DNA from: Gammaproteobacteria bacterium
Lineage (GTDB): Bacteria > Pseudomonadota > Gammaproteobacteria > RBG-16-57-12
DNA length: 64,000 nt
Assembly: GCA_021647245.1 (NCBI GenBank)
Contig: JAKIVC010000011.1
Location: 1,470-65,469, forward strand
Direction of reading: 5' to 3'
Shown: piece after piece, positions 42,246 through 64,000 of the stretch
Layout: each line of letters starts with the position of its first letter
How positions within the stretch are numbered: position 1 is the stretch's first letter
Notes under the pieces: model-generated
Database searches by the model: none
What the model was told of the DNA's origin: nothing
The model's input: the letters and a program-made list of their open reading frames with translations, nothing else
Position numbers and translations under genes: made by a program

Positions 42246-42277
42246 AAAAAAAGACCCTATCCAGATTGGATAGGGTC
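42246..42277 (-). terminator. rho-independent terminator ending the eCIS operon
   Basis: Forward aaaaaaa-GACCCTATCC-agatt-GGATAGGGTC; on the minus strand the perfect 10-bp stem is followed by a T-run, directly after the last eCIS gene. Confidence 0.8.
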
Positions 42278-42322
42278 TAAATACGCTTTAGCCGGACAGC
42301 TACACAATATAATTTAAAGCGA

Positions 42323-43699
42323 TCACTGCCATTGTGGATTGATAACTCGCCGATAATCTTGGGGGACCGTAATATTGCCACTGGCACCGCTGTTAATCAG
42401 CGCCAGCGGAGCATAACGATCACCATGGGACAGCGCTTTCTGTGCAGCAGGCCCATCCACACCTTGTGGCCACTCCACATCACCGGTCGCGGTACGTGCC
42501 GCAATCCACCACCAGTCACCAGACTGATACCAGTAGGACGCTGGCTCTGTCTCTTCGCCTTTCATAAGCGGGGGCTTGGGGAACTTAACCTCGACACCAT
42601 CCTCCAGCTCAATCCACTCATCCTGTACAATCGGAATCGTACCATGAGCACATTTAGCCGAGTGGTCCCAACGACGCAGCAAAGGTTTTTTTAGTGGATA
42701 AACCGACAACGCCCTTCCCATTGAAGGTGTACCGGAGAGCGTCACCTCCAAGGTGTCGGAATCAACCTCAACCACCTTGAGCAGGTTTTCCGCCTTGCGC
42801 TGCAGCTCATAAATATCATCTATCACCTCAATCCAATCGCCGACTTTTAGGCCGAAGTGTTGATCCCGCCCGAGATGCGCCAAGGTCACCGTATCACCGC
42901 TCAGCGCCCGAACCGGAAAAATCACCGAGCCATTTTCTCGGGACCATTTGAATGTAGCACCCCCACTCCCCTCACCACTGTGGTGAATCTCCACACGGTA
43001 GAGTTGGTTTTCAACACCTCGATAGCGATTTTCCGGCGCGGTAATACAGGGTTTACCTGCTTCAGAGGCTTTTTTTGCCTGTGCCTGTAGCAGCCCGTCG
43101 CCCTGTTTTATGATCTCTTTTCCCTTCAGCAGCGTTATAAAACTTTCGTAATCTTGCTTGAGGTCTTGCGCAGAACCACTCGTCGCCTCCGCCTCCTTTG
43201 CCGGCAATTCCAACAACCTCACCTGCCACACTGTTTTTAAACGGGTAGCTGTATCAGGCCCCGCTAAAGCAACCTCTCGAATATCATCATCTTCATCAGC
43301 GGTCATATGCCGCCACCAGAGATGCAGGTAAACCAAGTACGCCTTCCCATGCGCTATCTTTTCGCTGTCATCAGGAAAATAGTCCTCCTGTTGCGTAAAA
43401 AGGCAGTCATCACTATTTTGGCACAAGGCCCCCCGCACATAGTAGCGCCCCCGTTTGATGGTGAAATCGTGTGTCACGGTGGAACCACTGACATCATCTG
43501 TCTCTGGTTCAATTTTAAAGCTCTCGCCCGGCCCGCCATGCTCACCTATCAGATCTTCAGCCAAATTTTGCAGATTCAACCACTGTGTGATGGCCTGTTC
43601 ATTCCAGTCGGCGTCTAGCTGCACCCTGCCCTGCTGCATCAACAGCAGGGAGTACTGTTTTCGTTGATCATAGGTAATACGTGAAAAATCGCCTTTCAT
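42323..43699 (-). CDS. conserved eCIS/tail-associated protein of unknown function (terminal gene of operon)
   Basis: 458 aa; N-terminus MKGDFSRITYDQRKQYSLLLMQQGRVQLDADWNEQ; occupies the position where a fibre/receptor-binding protein (Afp13/gpH) would be expected. Confidence 0.55.
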   Translation of the reverse strand: MKGDFSRITYDQRKQYSLLLMQQGRVQLDADWNEQAITQWLNLQNLAEDLIGEHGGPGESFKIEPETDDVSGSTVTHDFTIKRGRYYVRGALCQNSDDCLFTQQEDYFPDDSEKIAHGKAYLVYLHLWWRHMTADEDDDIREVALAGPDTATRLKTVWQVRLLELPAKEAEATSGSAQDLKQDYESFITLLKGKEIIKQGDGLLQAQAKKASEAGKPCITAPENRYRGVENQLYRVEIHHSGEGSGGATFKWSRENGSVIFPVRALSGDTVTLAHLGRDQHFGLKVGDWIEVIDDIYELQRKAENLLKVVEVDSDTLEVTLSGTPSMGRALSVYPLKKPLLRRWDHSAKCAHGTIPIVQDEWIELEDGVEVKFPKPPLMKGEETEPASYWYQSGDWWWIAARTATGDVEWPQGVDGPAAQKALSHGDRYAPLALINSGASGNITVPQDYRRVINPQWQ

Positions 43700-43708
43700 A
43701 ACGCTCTC

Positions 43709-61233: not shown

Positions 61234-62456
61234 GAGATCGTCACCTCCATGGCGCTGTCAAAGGTGGGCGGTGTCATGCTGCGATCCACCAGCAGGCTAT
61301 CCACCCCATCAACTCGCAGCCGCACATAACGGCTGCCGAGCGGGGCATCGTCTATAACAAAGGTTAATGTATCCGTTTGGAGGGGGTGCTCATTCGCCAG
61401 CACTTCGCGATCACCTAACAGCAGTGCCACCCGTTGATCGGCACTCACTTGCGGGTGGCAGGTAAGTGTTAACTCCGCCCTGCCCAATCCATTACGAACA
61501 ACCGGGTTGGGTGGTGCAATACCCATAATGCGCGGCGCGAGCGAAAATGGAAGTAAATTGGTGCGTCTATCCTGCTCACCTGCTTTGTTGATAATGACCT
61601 CAACAGCATAGAACCCCACCCGCCAATCCGCTGGGTTGTTGGGTATTTGCACGCTTATTTGGCTCTCTGTGCCGCCAGTTAATGCCGTAATATCAATCGG
61701 GCTGGTTAAGCGGGGATGGCTAAAACGCACCATCACGGTATCACCATCCAGATGGTGGCCACTCAATATGAGGGTGTCTCCCAGCAAGGCGCTGGTCTGT
61801 TGGTTAGGCGCTACAATGTCAGTAATGGCTGGAAAAGGTGGAGTCAGATCAGCCTGTGCAGAGACCCCCCGGTCATCTTCACCTCGCTTTAAGACTGGTA
61901 ACGCTGTTTTGGCGAATCGTGTGCTATCAATGAGCACTACTGAAACTTCATAGCCGGTAGAGAGGCGATATTCAGATTGGAAGCTGGTCCAGAGTTTGGA
62001 CATATCATCCACTGACAATGCATCGTGGGTAATTCTTACCCGTTCAAGCTGATTTTGCAGGTCTGTATCCGGTAGTGCGGCCTGAATTTCTGCCCGCCCC
62101 AGTATTGGATGGTCATGTAGTGCACTCATTGAGCACCCCATGAGTCGATGCCCGTTGACATCATCATTGTTACGGCCGTAAGCGGTAATCAAGTATTTGA
62201 GCACCAACGCTAATGGTGGCAGACCACTCTCACCATTTTTGGTCTGGCCGGACATCGGCGCGTTACTGAATGCGGTATCGATGGAGGTGCCATACAGGAA
62301 AAGATTGAGCTGATTGGCGTCATTGCCGTTGCGGGCTATACCCGGCGGCTGGGTAGTCACCGTGGTATCCAGTAACTCGGGGGCTTCGTGCGCTGCGGTT
62401 GTTAATAGATTACGCAACGTTGAAGTCACTGCAGCAATAGCTGAGGGTGAACTCAT
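61230..62456 (-). CDS. DUF4255 (Pvc16/Afp16 N-domain)-containing tail terminator/cap-like protein with C-terminal extension
   Basis: 408 aa; N-terminal IAAVTSTLRNLL...QLNLFLYGTSID...LALVLKYLITAYG...KLWTSF follows the DUF4255 pattern. Confidence 0.65.
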   Translation of the reverse strand: MSSPSAIAAVTSTLRNLLTTAAHEAPELLDTTVTTQPPGIARNGNDANQLNLFLYGTSIDTAFSNAPMSGQTKNGESGLPPLALVLKYLITAYGRNNDDVNGHRLMGCSMSALHDHPILGRAEIQAALPDTDLQNQLERVRITHDALSVDDMSKLWTSFQSEYRLSTGYEVSVVLIDSTRFAKTALPVLKRGEDDRGVSAQADLTPPFPAITDIVAPNQQTSALLGDTLILSGHHLDGDTVMVRFSHPRLTSPIDITALTGGTESQISVQIPNNPADWRVGFYAVEVIINKAGEQDRRTNLLPFSLAPRIMGIAPPNPVVRNGLGRAELTLTCHPQVSADQRVALLLGDREVLANEHPLQTDTLTFVIDDAPLGSRYVRLRVDGVDSLLVDRSMTPPTFDSAMEVTIS

Positions 62457-63554
62457 CGCCGCCCACCTTCGCGTCGTTGCAGGTATTCATCCAGAGTCAT
62501 GACACCCGTTGGTTTCTTTGGCGCTTGTGCACTTTTCGGTTTTTCAGCTTGAACAGCCCGTACTTCGATCCGGCCGATAGTGACATTAATGACCGGTTCG
62601 GCCTTAACCTCTTGCGCCTGTAAATGCTGTTGAAATTGAGCCTCAATGCCAGACAACCATGATGGTGGCTCCAGCCGTTCATGGTGAGGTGTGTTTTCTC
62701 GCTCACCCACAGAGCCGCTATTCTCTTGATCAGCTGGCCACTTTAGGGTTTCCTGCTGCAGCTGTGGCGCAACAACGACGGCCGATGGCGGGGCCTCTTT
62801 TTCAGGCAAAGTCGATACCGGGCTATCACTGTTTTCCCTGCGTTGATCATCCGCCACAGCTAGCCGCTTCAGATCTTCAGTCAGGTACTGGAGCATTGTC
62901 CGGACACGATGATTCAGGTCTGACTCATTTTCAAGGTGATTTTCACCTACCCTCAATGTGGAGGGGATGTGGTGACTTGCCTCAGGTGTCTGTCGATGAT
63001 CTCTCGACGCAGCCGTTTCGCTAAAAGTTGGCAACTCACTTGCGGCGAATGCCAGCCTACCAGCCGGCTCCTCCTGAAATAGGTTTCGATGGGGATGTTT
63101 ATCAACATCTAAAAGTGAACTTATCGATGCTGAAGAGCCGGGCTGATCTCCATTTGCATCCGGCTGAACCGAAGCATCGCTTTGTACTAAAAACGAAGGC
63201 GATTGATCATTTTTTTTGCCCTCCACAGAGGCGGGTTCAGAAATAGCGACGCCGGGCCTATCAGCGGAAGAGGGAGGTGACGGATCCGCAGGGTGCGGCT
63301 GGTGATTACCCCTTGCCACGCTCAAATCAAACGAATTTATATCTAAAGCCCGCTCTTTTGATTGCACGTGAGGTCTATCTGCTGGCGGTTGTGGCACCTG
63401 GTTATGTTCTGCTACTGGCCTATTAACCTCTTCAGTGGAAGGCGTGGCCGCCATGCCATCTCGCTCCGCCTCAAACGGCCCGAGTGTGCGGGGCTGTATG
63501 GTTTCACACCTTCCAAGATGACGACCAACCAAGTTGGCAAAAAAGTCGTTCATC
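62453..63554 (-). CDS. low-complexity P/S/Q/E-rich protein with conserved C-terminal segment (possible length-determination/tape-measure analog)
   Basis: 367 aa from the MNDFFANLV ATG, which overlaps the upstream stop as ATGA; central ~250 aa compositionally biased; C-terminus ...PVINVTIGRIEVRAVQ...MTLDEYLQRREG. Confidence 0.45.
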
Positions 63555-64000
63555 GACCCACCATCCCGAGATAGAGCTGCCGACGCACTGGCGTGAGGCT
63601 TAATATATCCTCCTCTCTCCAACCATAAGCAGTCGCGAGCCGGTGTACAGTGCGAAGCGTGCGTTCCGCCCAAGTGTTGATCTCAACCCACAAAAAACTA
63701 GCAATATCAAACAGCACCTCCCACTGGTGGGAACATTCAGGGCACGTCAGTGCGGTACGAATTTCAGCTTGTGGGTCCAGCTTTTCAAGCTGCTGGCTTA
63801 ATGCCTCAAACACATGTTGTGGCAGTTCAGTTAAATCACACCCTTTTCCAGCACGGTCAGCGGAAACAATACAGCGTTCGATGAGTGCGGTAGCGGCGCT
63901 GCTGCTATCCCCTGTTGCTGCCATAACAGTGGCAATATCCACGCTGGTGAGCAGGCGAAAGTGGAGCTGGTAGTCATCCACCGCTAACTGAAACTCCGCC
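63550..64000 (-). CDS. hypothetical eCIS-operon protein, 5' end outside window (partial)
   Basis: Open frame continues to the window edge with no stop; in-window part ...LTCPECSHQWEV...; stop overlaps next gene start. Confidence 0.4.
   Translation of the reverse strand, partial: AEFQLAVDDYQLHFRLLTSVDIATVMAATGDSSSAATALIERCIVSADRAGKGCDLTELPQHVFEALSQQLEKLDPQAEIRTALTCPECSHQWEVLFDIASFLWVEINTWAERTLRTVHRLATAYGWREEDILSLTPVRRQLYLGMVGR

Follow-up and report, generated by a model that had tools for sequence, protein, structure and literature searches.

Among contractile injection systems (CIS) of the Afp/PVC-like superfamily, subtypes IIa and IIc are characterised by two Afp11 copies, an Afp8 split into gp27 and gp5 parts, and a PAAR protein (PMC6899500). 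The synteny LysM-gp27/gp5-PAAR-gp25-J-P2_I was described in 2014, as were the variable position of the ATPase gene and its pairing with DUF4255 (PMC4122934). In a haloarchaeal system of clade IIa, an 'interspacing' cargo region encoding DUF4157 proteins lies in the middle of the cluster (PMC11566945). DUF6519 corresponds to eBAP5, the domain by which CIS fibre/crown proteins are anchored to the baseplate, and systems that carry it rely on Tail_P2_I adaptors 'resembling R-pyocin fiber attachment' (PMC12923769). The lineage-II systems of Streptomyces and Halogeometricum, and also the Anabaena system, operate without extracellular release.

The window, i.e., the whole stretch of 64,000 nucleotides analysed here, comes from an uncultured gammaproteobacterium and contains a chromosomal CIS of the Afp/PVC-like superfamily that is very probably a member of lineage II and shows the traits of subtype IIa or IIc (afp11 in two copies, afp8 split, and a PAAR protein present). 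All genes described in an earlier, sequence-only reading of this DNA are present on the minus strand and form a real CIS gene cluster, tightly coupled by 4-nt start/stop overlaps or gaps of at most 14 nt except around a mobile-element insertion. The operon, in which a cargo slot separates two structural blocks, is read from beyond position 64000 to 42323, where a strong terminator-like hairpin closes it 45 nt past the last gene (DUF6519), in agreement with the start coordinate of 42246 proposed earlier. The flanking genes are housekeeping genes (LPS, glnE, gltB, relA/spoT, coaX, and birA), and no capsid, terminase, tape-measure, holin, or endolysin genes were found in the window, flanks included. 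The features, in reading order, are as follows.

42323-64000 (within the window), minus strand: CIS operon, one tightly coupled gene cluster
63550-64000, minus: 3' portion of the gene for a 249-aa protein in the T4_baseplate (PF12322)/baseplate-hub family, start beyond the window end
62453-63553, minus: 366-aa conserved protein without family assignment
61230-62456, minus: cap/tail terminator (Afp16-like), 408 aa, Pfam Pvc16_N (DUF4255)
59107-61233, minus: predicted Afp15-type ATPase, 708 aa, N-terminal winged-helix and one C-terminal classical AAA domain
58853-59110, minus: small conserved protein, 85 aa, in a conserved position after the ATPase
58491-58856, minus: truncated first cargo gene, 121 aa, DUF4157/eCIS_core-family N-terminal motif
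58101-58412, minus: IS66-family TnpA-like remnant ORF, 103 aa, not a CIS part
57394-58170, minus: RAYT element inserted in the cargo slot, transposase gene and two inverted REP pairs
57501-58052, minus: REP-associated tyrosine transposase, 183 aa
54878-57382, minus: kexin-like S8 serine protease, 834 aa, two P-domains, the sole intact cargo-slot gene
54240-54881, minus: putative tube-like baseplate protein, 213 aa, tube initiator, gpU/Cis5-Cis7 N-domain analogue
53907-54236, minus: putative gpX-like (LysM-type) protein, 109 aa, a weak assignment from ortholog matches
52790-53920, minus: putative central hub, 376 aa, gp27/gpD/Mu gp44 type, N-terminal half of a split Afp8/VgrG
52260-52793, minus: spike, 177 aa, gp5/gpV OB-fold, C-terminal half of the split Afp8
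51928-52251, minus: PAAR-like spike tip, 107 aa, Pfam DUF4280 (borderline)
51558-51938, minus: gp25/Afp9 baseplate wedge protein
48976-51561, minus: Afp11-like baseplate protein, paralog a, 861 aa
46007-48979, minus: Afp11-like baseplate protein, paralog b, 990 aa
43709-45997, minus: putative gpI/Mu gp48-like baseplate adaptor, 762 aa, from ortholog matches
42323-43699, minus: DUF6519 protein, 458 aa
42252-42278, minus: terminator-like hairpin, 12-bp stem followed by a T-run

The operon was extended past 64000 using a contig (L001) that is 99.6% identical to the window over a 5.6 kb overlap. Directly upstream, this contig encodes an AraC-type response regulator, the sheath (516 aa) and gp19-type tube (175 aa) that had been predicted to lie there, the 249-aa T4_baseplate-family protein, and the 366-aa protein. 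The sheath is closest to those of solved lineage-II systems (Streptomyces 8bky/9gtp, 5e-80; 9ezm, 2e-78), whereas its match to Pvc2 is weaker (9e-47). The 249-aa gene, mapped from L001:3682-4431, matches PF12322 and the PHROG 'baseplate hub' (1.1e-10). The following 366-aa gene (L001:4428-5528), which lies after the 3' end of the 249-aa gene, replaces the 406-aa ORF with a TTG start given earlier; its product is conserved at both termini and disordered in the middle, and is always encoded between the 249-aa and cap genes, where relatives range from 266 to 416 aa. The cap and AAA ATPase claimed in the sequence-only reading are both present. The cap matches Pvc16_N (E 2.5e-42, 145 bits against a cut-off of 27; named DUF4255 protein by NCBI), and the ATPase, with WHD (2.4e-27) and AAA (1.2e-26) Pfam domains, both above curated thresholds and the latter nearest p97/Cdc48-type ATPases, is of the Afp15 type as judged by domain make-up and conserved position. 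The two genes stand head-to-tail in all related loci. The 85-aa protein gave no match in a family search; it is found at the equivalent place in 46 related loci, with 30-56% identity.

In the second block, the assignments given earlier for the spike (Phage_base_V, E 4.8e-17, 62.5 bits), gp25 (GPW_gp25, E 3.6e-15, 56 bits), and both J-like proteins pass curated thresholds. Paralog a matches NCBIfam TIGR02243 at E 1e-96 (325 bits, cut-off 156) and the Streptomyces CIS baseplate J protein 9gtp_1K (8e-10); paralog b matches TIGR02243 at 6.6e-79 (266 bits, same cut-off) and Baseplate_J at 9.5e-9; the two share 27% identity over the C-terminal 300 aa. The start codon of gp25 is uncertain, either GTG at 51938 or an ATG 5-6 codons further on. 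The proposed DUF4280 protein falls just under its threshold (E 1.5e-5, 26.0 bits against 26.3) and is conserved in 74 related loci. The conserved protein noted in the place of the fibre is the published fibre anchor DUF6519 (E 4.5e-83, 280 bits, above the curated threshold), with more than 7,000 homologs, mostly of 430-500 aa, and a model (pLDDT 78) with no close solved fold.

The gpU-, gpX-, gpD-, and gpI-like assignments held at the level of orthologs or families, but the matches of the proteins themselves are sub-threshold or absent. The 213-aa protein matches CIS_tube below the cut-off (8.7e-5, 22.8 bits), as do 15 of 16 orthologs (best 1.6e-7), and its profile matches the Cis7-type 'peptidoglycan-binding protein' 9rce_H (E 0.003). 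The 109-aa protein has no domain match of its own, and its orthologs match Phage_tail_X (9 of 15, best 0.0032) and LysM (2). The hub profile matches the VgrG chain 9rce_F (E 5.5e-5); hub residues 310-363 align to positions 294-349 of NCBIfam VgrG_rel, which the spike continues at 369-458, and the top Foldseek matches of its poor model (pLDDT 50) are all Cis8/VgrG/Mu gp44/gpD-type hubs. No significant domain match was found for the 762-aa protein (Pectinesterase, 0.029), whose middle region is a probable beta-helix and whose orthologs match Phage_Mu_Gp48 (7 of 14, best 2e-4) and Tail_P2_I (1). With such sub-threshold or ortholog matches and a low-confidence hub model, the roles of the 213-, 109-, 376-, and 762-aa proteins are borderline.

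Gene content, gene order, family membership, and conservation are established directly; assembly, firing, cargo identity, and the site of particle action we infer. The first block would supply the contractile tail and finishing factors (sheath, tube, T4_baseplate-family protein, 366-aa protein, cap, ATPase, and 85-aa protein), and the second the baseplate and spike, ending in the gpI-like adaptor and DUF6519 fibre/crown protein. After solved relatives, the baseplate would assemble around the hub-spike-PAAR complex, tube and sheath would polymerise on it and then be capped, and the ATPase may aid assembly or cargo loading. Target contact through the DUF6519 protein and gpI-like adaptor would trigger sheath contraction, pushing spike, tube, and associated cargo into the target. 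It is conceivable, although we consider it doubtful, that the same machine is not released and acts from within the producing cell, where it stays unanchored in the cytoplasm, like that of Streptomyces, or is anchored to a membrane and fires upon contact, like the T6SS-like haloarchaeal system and the thylakoid-anchored Anabaena system. The closest solved sheaths come from Streptomyces cytoplasmic CIS, the haloarchaeal system of clade IIa, which has a pair of cis11 genes and a DUF4157 region at its centre, is bound to the membrane and depends on contact (PMC11566945), and the window has no holin or endolysin gene for release. However, none of the proteins encoded by the operon contains a convincing transmembrane segment (19-residue hydropathy peaks within the hub and sheath), no anchor gene adjoins the operon, and the DUF6519 protein is read as a target-binding part of released particles (PMC12923769).

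The cargo slot is remodelled in the present genome. Its first gene, of the DUF4157 family, is cut to 121 aa beside the IS66 remnant and the RAYT/REP element. This ORF has no PF13699 match for the eCIS_core domain and retains the N-terminal motif of the DUF4157/eCIS_core cargo family ('KLKIGxPGDxYExEADRVAEQVM'), and its residues 74-102 match residues ~50-85 of many slot proteins. Elsewhere, the motif sits in eCIS_core proteins, and 9 of the 12 ORFs that were read through measure 376-1093 aa. The IS66 remnant (IS66_ISAeme5_TnpA, E 1.2e-6, 28.9 bits, cut-off 28) runs at its 3' end into a REP copy. Two copies of the REP core are present in the window, where 0 would be expected. Inverted REP pairs at 57394-57497 and 58054-58170 (direct and inverted repeats) lie around the 183-aa ORF, which was rejected as a CIS part by its match to REP_Tyr_transpos (E 2.5e-58, 196 bits). 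The 834-aa 'payload' of the sequence-only reading does sit in the slot, but is an S8 subtilase (Peptidase_S8, 5.8e-34) with two P-domains (P_proprotein, 4.1e-42); its catalytic motifs are intact (DDG218, HGT265, and GTSSATP473) and it has no signal peptide. In favour of decay of this copy, in which mobile elements broke the cargo region so that the locus no longer delivers anything useful, are the truncation, the 78-nt and 118-nt gaps that break the otherwise tight coupling around these elements, and the closest relative (L004), where only the final 61 codons of the S8 gene remain. Nevertheless, we regard decay as unlikely: every structural gene that lies entirely within the window has its full length, with an ortholog-like size and overlapping stop/start codons, the S8 motifs are intact, and cargo genes may sit elsewhere in the genome, as in the haloarchaeal system (PMC11566945).

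The layout itself is the standard one of a family that is widespread, present in hundreds of bacterial species, and already catalogued. Homologs of the hub number more than 7,210, and 293 species-level genomes carry it. In each of the 57 related loci of 15 kb or more, the genes keep the same order and strand: sheath, tube, 249-aa protein, 366-aa protein, cap, ATPase, 85-aa protein, and cargo slot, then tube-like, gpX-like, hub, spike, PAAR-like, gp25, J, J', gpI-like, and DUF6519. These loci occur in Pseudomonadota, Bacteroidota, Acidobacteriota, Verrucomicrobiota, Cyanobacteria, Nitrospirota, Chloroflexota, and Gemmatimonadota; a restriction of the order to a few close relatives is contradicted by its presence in at least eight phyla. 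The arrangement had been proposed as an atypical hybrid and possibly an undescribed CIS subtype, in which cap, ATPase, and cargo precede a P2/R-pyocin-style baseplate with unfused hub and spike and two J genes. It does differ from Afp/PVC (subtype Ia), and the cap, DUF6519, and gpI-like proteins match no solved structure by sequence. A new subtype is nevertheless very improbable, given the shared order and since each trait is in print (PMC4122934, PMC6899500, PMC11566945, and PMC12923769; 2014, 2019, 2024, and 2026) and DUF6519, Pvc16_N/DUF4255, CIS_tube, and eCIS_core are curated Pfam families that serve as CIS markers and are already applied to such proteins in NCBI annotation. A P2-like prophage tail module or R-type tailocin, which the U-X-D-V-W-J-I-like baseplate order and the Phage_tail_X, Mu_Gp48, and Tail_P2_I affinities to P2 and Mu recall, is refuted, as the sequence-only reading had held, by the Pvc16_N cap, AAA ATPase, PAAR-like protein, and eCIS_core-family cargo amid housekeeping neighbours without head or lysis genes.

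Within this conserved CIS family, the distance between the two blocks varies from 15 bp to 8.4 kb. The variable slot normally houses DUF4157/eCIS_core cargo proteins: 95 of 129 slot ORFs form one family, with an eCIS_core (PF13699) domain in the members scanned. Orthologs of the S8 protease occur in 7 other loci, all 8 sharing its position as the last slot gene, and the CIS literature searched holds no mention of a kexin-like S8 slot protease. The cargo gene truncated beside mobile elements and the S8 protease are more interesting details of the locus than its overall layout. The loss of most of the S8 gene in L004 suggests that the slot turns over quickly, and with its canonical DUF4157 cargo truncated, the present copy may be cargo-poor or inactive.

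Every long ORF between window positions 42323 and 64000 lies on the minus strand, mostly with 4-nt overlaps or gaps of a few bases, and the gene content bears out the identification of the locus as a contractile injection system (CIS). Genes were assigned from Pfam and NCBIfam matches, with the curated cut-offs as thresholds, and those past position 64000 were read from the sister contig L001, which overlaps the window end by 5.6 kb at 99.6% identity. The sequence-only reading had placed the missing sheath and tube genes just past 64000, and L001 carries both. The cap sequence is identical on two short contigs.

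Features of the operon, from the sheath end to the last gene (window positions unless L001 is named)
L001, upstream of the overlap: AraC-type response regulator
L001: sheath, 516 aa (Phage_sheath_1/1C)
L001: tube, gp19-type, 175 aa (Phage_T4_gp19)
63550-64000 (3' end; gene read from L001), minus: p249, T4_baseplate-family protein, 249 aa
62453-63553 (L001:4428-5528), minus: p366, 366 aa, followed by the cap
61230-62456, minus: cap, 408 aa (Pvc16_N/DUF4255, 145 bits against a cut-off of 27)
59107-61233, minus: ATPase, 708 aa (winged-helix domain, WHD, and AAA, above threshold)
58853-59110, minus: p85, small protein, 85 aa (no family match)
58491-58856, minus: small protein, 121 aa (no family match)
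58101-58412, minus: IS66 TnpA-like ORF, 103 aa (NCBIfam, 28.9 bits)
57501-58052, minus: REP-associated tyrosine transposase (RAYT), 183 aa (E 2.5e-58)
54878-57382, minus: S8 subtilase with two P-domains, 834 aa (Peptidase_S8 5.8e-34, P_proprotein 4.1e-42)
54240-54881, minus: tube-like protein, 213 aa (weak CIS_tube)
53907-54236, minus: gpX-like protein, 109 aa (no direct match)
52790-53920, minus: hub, 376 aa (faint VgrG similarity)
52260-52793, minus: spike, 177 aa (Phage_base_V, 62.5 bits)
51928-52251, minus: PAAR-like protein, 107 aa (DUF4280, E 1.5e-5, 26.0 bits against a cut-off of 26.3)
51558-51938, minus: baseplate wedge gp25, 126 aa (GPW_gp25, 56 bits)
48976-51561, minus: Afp11-like paralog a (J), 861 aa (TIGR02243, 325 bits, cut-off 156)
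46007-48979, minus: Afp11-like paralog b (J'), 990 aa (TIGR02243, 266 bits, cut-off 156)
43709-45997, minus: gpI-like protein, 762 aa (no direct match)
42323-43699, minus: DUF6519 protein, 458 aa, last gene (E 4.5e-83)
42252-42278, minus: 12-bp hairpin and T-run, 3' of the DUF6519 gene

Within the eight-gene core defined for the Afp/PVC-like CIS superfamily (Chen et al., 2019), the sheath (Afp2/3/4) and the gp19-type tube (Afp1/5) are present outside the window, on L001, and the Afp16-type cap is recognized far above its cut-off. The Afp15-type AAA+ ATPase is identified by its WHD and AAA domains and by its position beside the cap, which it adjoins in all loci mapped. Afp11 and Afp9 are represented by the TIGR02243 paralogs and GPW_gp25, and the Afp8 spike (gp27 and gp5) by Phage_base_V together with the VgrG profile, VgrG_rel and Foldseek matches of the hub. 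A P2-like prophage, pyocin or R-type tailocin is ruled out by the ATPase and cap and by the housekeeping genes that neighbor the operon, near which no phage head or lysis genes were found. A canonical T6SS (i-iii) is likewise rejected, given the two baseplate J paralogs and the absence of membrane-complex genes and transmembrane proteins from the operon.

The operon is followed on its 3' side by sirB, birA, and coaX, and the rest of the window contains relA/spoT, gltB, glnE, a low-GC nonulosonic-acid/glycosyltransferase cluster and LPS-core genes; the locus is considered chromosomal because these flanking genes are of housekeeping type. The surface-glycan cluster (9350-20845, 40-47% GC) adjoins the LPS-core genes and encodes NeuB, a CMP-sugar cytidylyltransferase, a DegT-type aminotransferase, a PseB-like dehydratase, a GNAT/glycosyltransferase fusion, a sulfotransferase and a GT4 glycosyltransferase. 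Within the operon, the longest gp25 ORF starts from GTG and overlaps the PAAR-like gene by 11 nt, and two ATG codons located 5-6 codons downstream are alternative starts.

The reading of the second half of the operon as a U-X-D-V-PAAR-W-J-J'-I module is reasonable, although four of its nine assignments are weakly supported. For these proteins, ortholog alignments were built from related loci and each member was scanned separately for domains. The 213-aa protein falls below the CIS_tube cut-off, whereas 15 of its 16 orthologs match this family, and the ortholog profile gives a weak match to a Cis7-type “peptidoglycan-binding protein” from a solved CIS. The 109-aa protein is similarly sub-threshold for Phage_tail_X, which is matched by 9 of 15 orthologs. 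The counterpart of Afp7 may be split into a CIS_tube-like and a Phage_tail_X-like protein; these sub-threshold matches recur in orthologs. Among 14 orthologs of the 762-aa protein, seven match Phage_Mu_Gp48 and one matches Tail_P2_I. The family profiles of the 109-aa and 762-aa proteins gave nothing significant against PDB sequences. The DUF4280 match of the 107-aa protein is just under the cut-off, and its position and size fit the PAAR-like afp10.

At E 5.5e-5, the profile built for the hub finds the gp27-like portion of a solved VgrG. Along the NCBIfam model VgrG_rel, the hub C-terminus aligns with positions 294-349 and the spike with positions 369-458, a continuity expected for a split VgrG. 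The AlphaFold model of the hub, made from a 15-sequence alignment, is poor (pLDDT 50), and its Foldseek matches therefore count only as supporting evidence: all 29 significant matches (E ≤ 0.001; TM about 0.2) are tail hub or spike proteins, led by the CIS protein Cis8, Mu gp44 and gpD-type hubs, T4 gp27, and T6SS VgrG. The DUF6519 protein gave a better model (pLDDT 78, pTM 0.79), which has no convincing or close match among solved folds and tells nothing more than what is already published on this family as eBAP5. By sequence, no related solved structure was found for the cap, the DUF6519 protein or the gpI-like adaptor.

The L001 sheath matches CIS sheaths in the PDB. Among solved sheaths it is closest to those of the Streptomyces CIS and 9ezm (E about 1e-79), with PVC and Afp far behind, which fits lineage II. 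This placement is measured by sheath similarity to solved systems, and the subtype is named as IIa or IIc, two traits of which are present: tandem TIGR02243 paralogs provide two afp11 copies, and afp8 is split into the hub and the spike, encoded by adjacent, overlapping ORFs. Between the tube-side genes and the cap lies p366, whose N- and C-termini are conserved, whose long middle is disordered and rich in Pro, Ser, and Glu, and whose length in relatives ranges from 266 to 416 aa. It is possible that p366 is a stand-in for the tape measure, a component said to be missing from lineage II.

The sequence-only reading took the architecture to be atypical and perhaps undescribed, a view that finds no support in either the literature or the relatives. 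Sarris et al. (2014; PMC4122934) reported conserved LysM-gp27/gp5-PAAR-gp25-J-P2_I synteny in ‘PLTS’ clusters, with GPD and base-V as separate ORFs outside Enterobacteriaceae, either one or two J genes, and an ATPase gene whose position varies and which lies head-to-tail with DUF4255. Chen et al. (2019; PMC6899500) characterize subtypes IIa and IIc by two afp11 genes, an afp8 split in two, and a PAAR protein. The locus shares with the dbeCIS IIa/IIc and PLTS descriptions the sheath, tube, Afp8, Afp9, Afp11, Afp15, and Afp16 proteins, a putative Afp7-like counterpart, the duplicated Afp11, the gp27-type/gp5-type split of Afp8, a probable PAAR-like gene, the lack of a recognizable Afp14 tape measure, the ATPase beside DUF4255, and the baseplate synteny itself; no window feature was found outside these published descriptions.

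The clade IIa CIS of Halogeometricum borinquense (Sci Adv 2024; PMC11566945) is also alike in having a cargo ‘interspacing’ region with DUF4157 between two structural subclusters and two cis11 genes, and the reported absence of cis6, cis14, and cis19 homologs is counted as a further likeness. It differs in being archaeal, plasmid-borne, membrane-bound and contact-dependent, and a gene for a six-helix membrane protein adjoins its cluster, whereas such an anchor was not seen at the window locus. In the eBAP5 systems (DUF6519 = “eBAP5”; Nat Commun 2026; PMC12923769), a terminal DUF6519 gene likewise follows baseplate J and P2_I-like genes, and the baseplate type has a Tail_P2_I adaptor as in R-pyocins, the Tail_P2_I adaptors of eBAP3/5 systems being described as “resembling R-pyocin fiber attachment”. 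That study links eBAP5 mainly to Actinobacteriota and to long fibers with macroglobulin or beta-helix shafts, whereas the window protein consists of little more than the anchor domain and is short (430-500 aa), as are most of the top 120 homologs listed.

The cytoplasmic CIS of Streptomyces coelicolor/venezuelae (IId; 8bky, 9gtp, 8bl4) provides the closest solved sheath (E 5e-80) and the closest solved baseplate J (E 8e-10). Its proteins other than the sheath are only distantly related to those of the window. In the Streptomyces cluster, the cap and ATPase genes precede the sheath gene. Subtype IId further differs in having a single Afp11 and a fused Afp8 (PMC6899500). Afp/PVC (subtype Ia) shares the machine type and core gene set, but has three sheath genes, a fused VgrG-like Afp8, one Afp11 plus Afp12, an adenovirus-like Afp13 fiber and an Afp14 tape measure, with the ATPase, cap and payloads at the 3' end.

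Homologs of the hub number more than 7,210 at E ≤ 1e-5, the top 120 being 66-95% identical, and a scan of one genome per species identified 293 hub carriers. The best 80 of these were fetched for locus comparison, and 22 reference proteins were mapped onto the related loci by tblastn. These 80 hosts include Gamma-, Beta-, Alpha-, and Deltaproteobacteria, Nitrospirota, Anaerolineae, Bacteroidota, Acidobacteriota, Verrucomicrobiota, Gemmatimonadales, and Cyanobacteria. In each of the 57 loci that span 15 kb or more, the genes are the same, share one strand and follow an identical order: sheath, tube, p249, p366, cap, ATPase, p85, and the variable cargo slot, followed by tube-like, gpX-like, hub, spike, PAAR-like, gp25, J, J', gpI-like, and DUF6519. 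The locus is accordingly a further member of a known, widespread kind of CIS, a family counted in hundreds to thousands. Conservation differs greatly among the genes: across loci L004-L083, median identity to the window is 79% for the tube, 67% for the spike, and 65% for the hub, and 43% for the second Afp11 paralog, 43% for DUF6519, and 37% for the cap. Identity does not track host phylum, with Nitrospirota and Desulfobacterales hubs being 76-85% identical, which points to horizontal transfer.

Measured from the ATPase/p85 block to the tube-like gene, the slot varies in length between 15 bp and 8.4 kb among loci. Of its 129 ORFs, 95 belong to one family, the scanned members of which carry PF13699 (formerly DUF4157, now “eCIS core domain”). 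The 121-aa protein of the window has only the N-terminal motif “KLKIGxPGDxYExEADRVAEQVM” in common with this family. In other loci, the eCIS_core domain usually begins about 40 residues after the motif, and 9 of the 12 ORFs followed to their ends are 376-1093 aa long. The 121-aa protein stops 19 residues past the motif and is followed by the IS66 TnpA-like ORF and the RAYT. A conserved stand-alone gene was considered for the 121-aa protein, as matches follow the p85 gene in 11 loci, but these are mostly the N-terminus of a long eCIS_core protein, which favors truncation. Based on this comparison, the first cargo gene was probably truncated in association with a mobile-element insertion.

The RAYT sits between the truncated cargo gene and the S8 gene and is flanked by inverted REP pairs (57394-57497 and 58054-58170); the 21-nt REP core occurs in only two places in the 64-kb window, both flanking the RAYT. 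The 103-aa IS66 ORF matches only the small TnpA accessory protein, barely above threshold, has no TnpB or TnpC beside it, and runs into a REP copy at its 3' end; it resembles the remnant of an IS. The near-identical sister contigs L001 and L002 stop within about 120 nt past the 121-aa gene, a pattern that a break of the assembly at a repeat would produce.

Other slots hold different cargo. Five loci (L026, L033, L035, L052, and L066) from Alphaproteobacteria and Acidobacteriota-type MAGs/genomes contain, at about positions 1000-9000, one giant eCIS_core protein of 2,419-2,451 aa and a conserved partner of 204-281 aa. In Nitrosomonas sp. Nm166 (L086:4865-6750), one slot gene encodes eCIS_core joined to an Ntox16 toxin domain, and together with the small DUF6714-like gene that follows it likely constitutes a toxin-immunity pair.

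The S8 protease is kexin-like, with catalytic motifs DDG at 218, HGT at 265, and GTSSATP at 473, and lacks a signal peptide. Its relatives comprise more than 120 cluster representatives that are 65-87% identical across phyla, a level of conservation that matches the structural core, and 829-838 aa long, with three exceptions of 705-718 aa. In all eight CIS loci with the gene, it is last in the slot, directly upstream of the tube-like gene: the window, L009 (Nitrospirota), L063, L084 (a metagenome contig with a Neptunomonas qingdaonensis protein), L086, L087 (a complete genome), L088, and the partial L013. Short C-terminal remnants occupy the same slot-end position in L004 (the last 61 codons) and L011 (about 56 codons). 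Orphan copies occur in L085 (Desulfosarcina alkanivorans) and L089, which share one Desulfosarcina-type context. A VanY-type peptidase gene is located directly upstream of the S8 gene in both L085 and L086.

The polymorphic DUF4157 cargo shows neither this conservation nor such a fixed position, and the contrast suggests that the protease has a dedicated accessory role. The S8 protease may tentatively be regarded, at somewhat less than an even chance, as a position-fixed accessory of this CIS lineage, either a delivered effector or a processor of DUF4157 cargo or particle proteins. It goes unmentioned in the text of Geller et al. (2021) and in the supplements of that study and of the 2026 eBAP catalogue, which is a limited negative.

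By analogy with solved CIS, baseplate assembly would start from the hub-spike-PAAR complex and bring in gp25, both Afp11 paralogs and the gpI-like adaptor, with DUF6519 trimers at the periphery; the hub would be connected to the tube through the tube-like initiator and the gpX-like protein. Polymerization of the tube and sheath would follow, with the Pvc16-type protein as their cap, the AAA ATPase would help in assembly or cargo loading, and contraction would drive the spike and tube into a target. Of the characterized lineage-II relatives considered, the Streptomyces CIS is cytoplasmic and the Halogeometricum CIS membrane-bound (PMC11566945). The Anabaena CIS is thylakoid-anchored. The operon proteins of the window show no clear transmembrane segment and include a fiber-type protein (DUF6519), and the particle probably acts by release from the cell.

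As a catalogue entry, the locus adds little, since NCBI already has the right domain names for the operon proteins (DUF4255, ATP-binding, proprotein convertase P-domain, and DUF6519). Residual interest is modest and lies mainly in the S8 protease, p366, and p249, and also in the DUF6519 model without a close solved counterpart. The locus is useful mainly to illustrate the lineage-II layout in a sub-lineage of which no purified or solved member is known, and it provides two concrete leads: the recurrent S8 protease and the variable-length p366, which may stand in for the tape measure.
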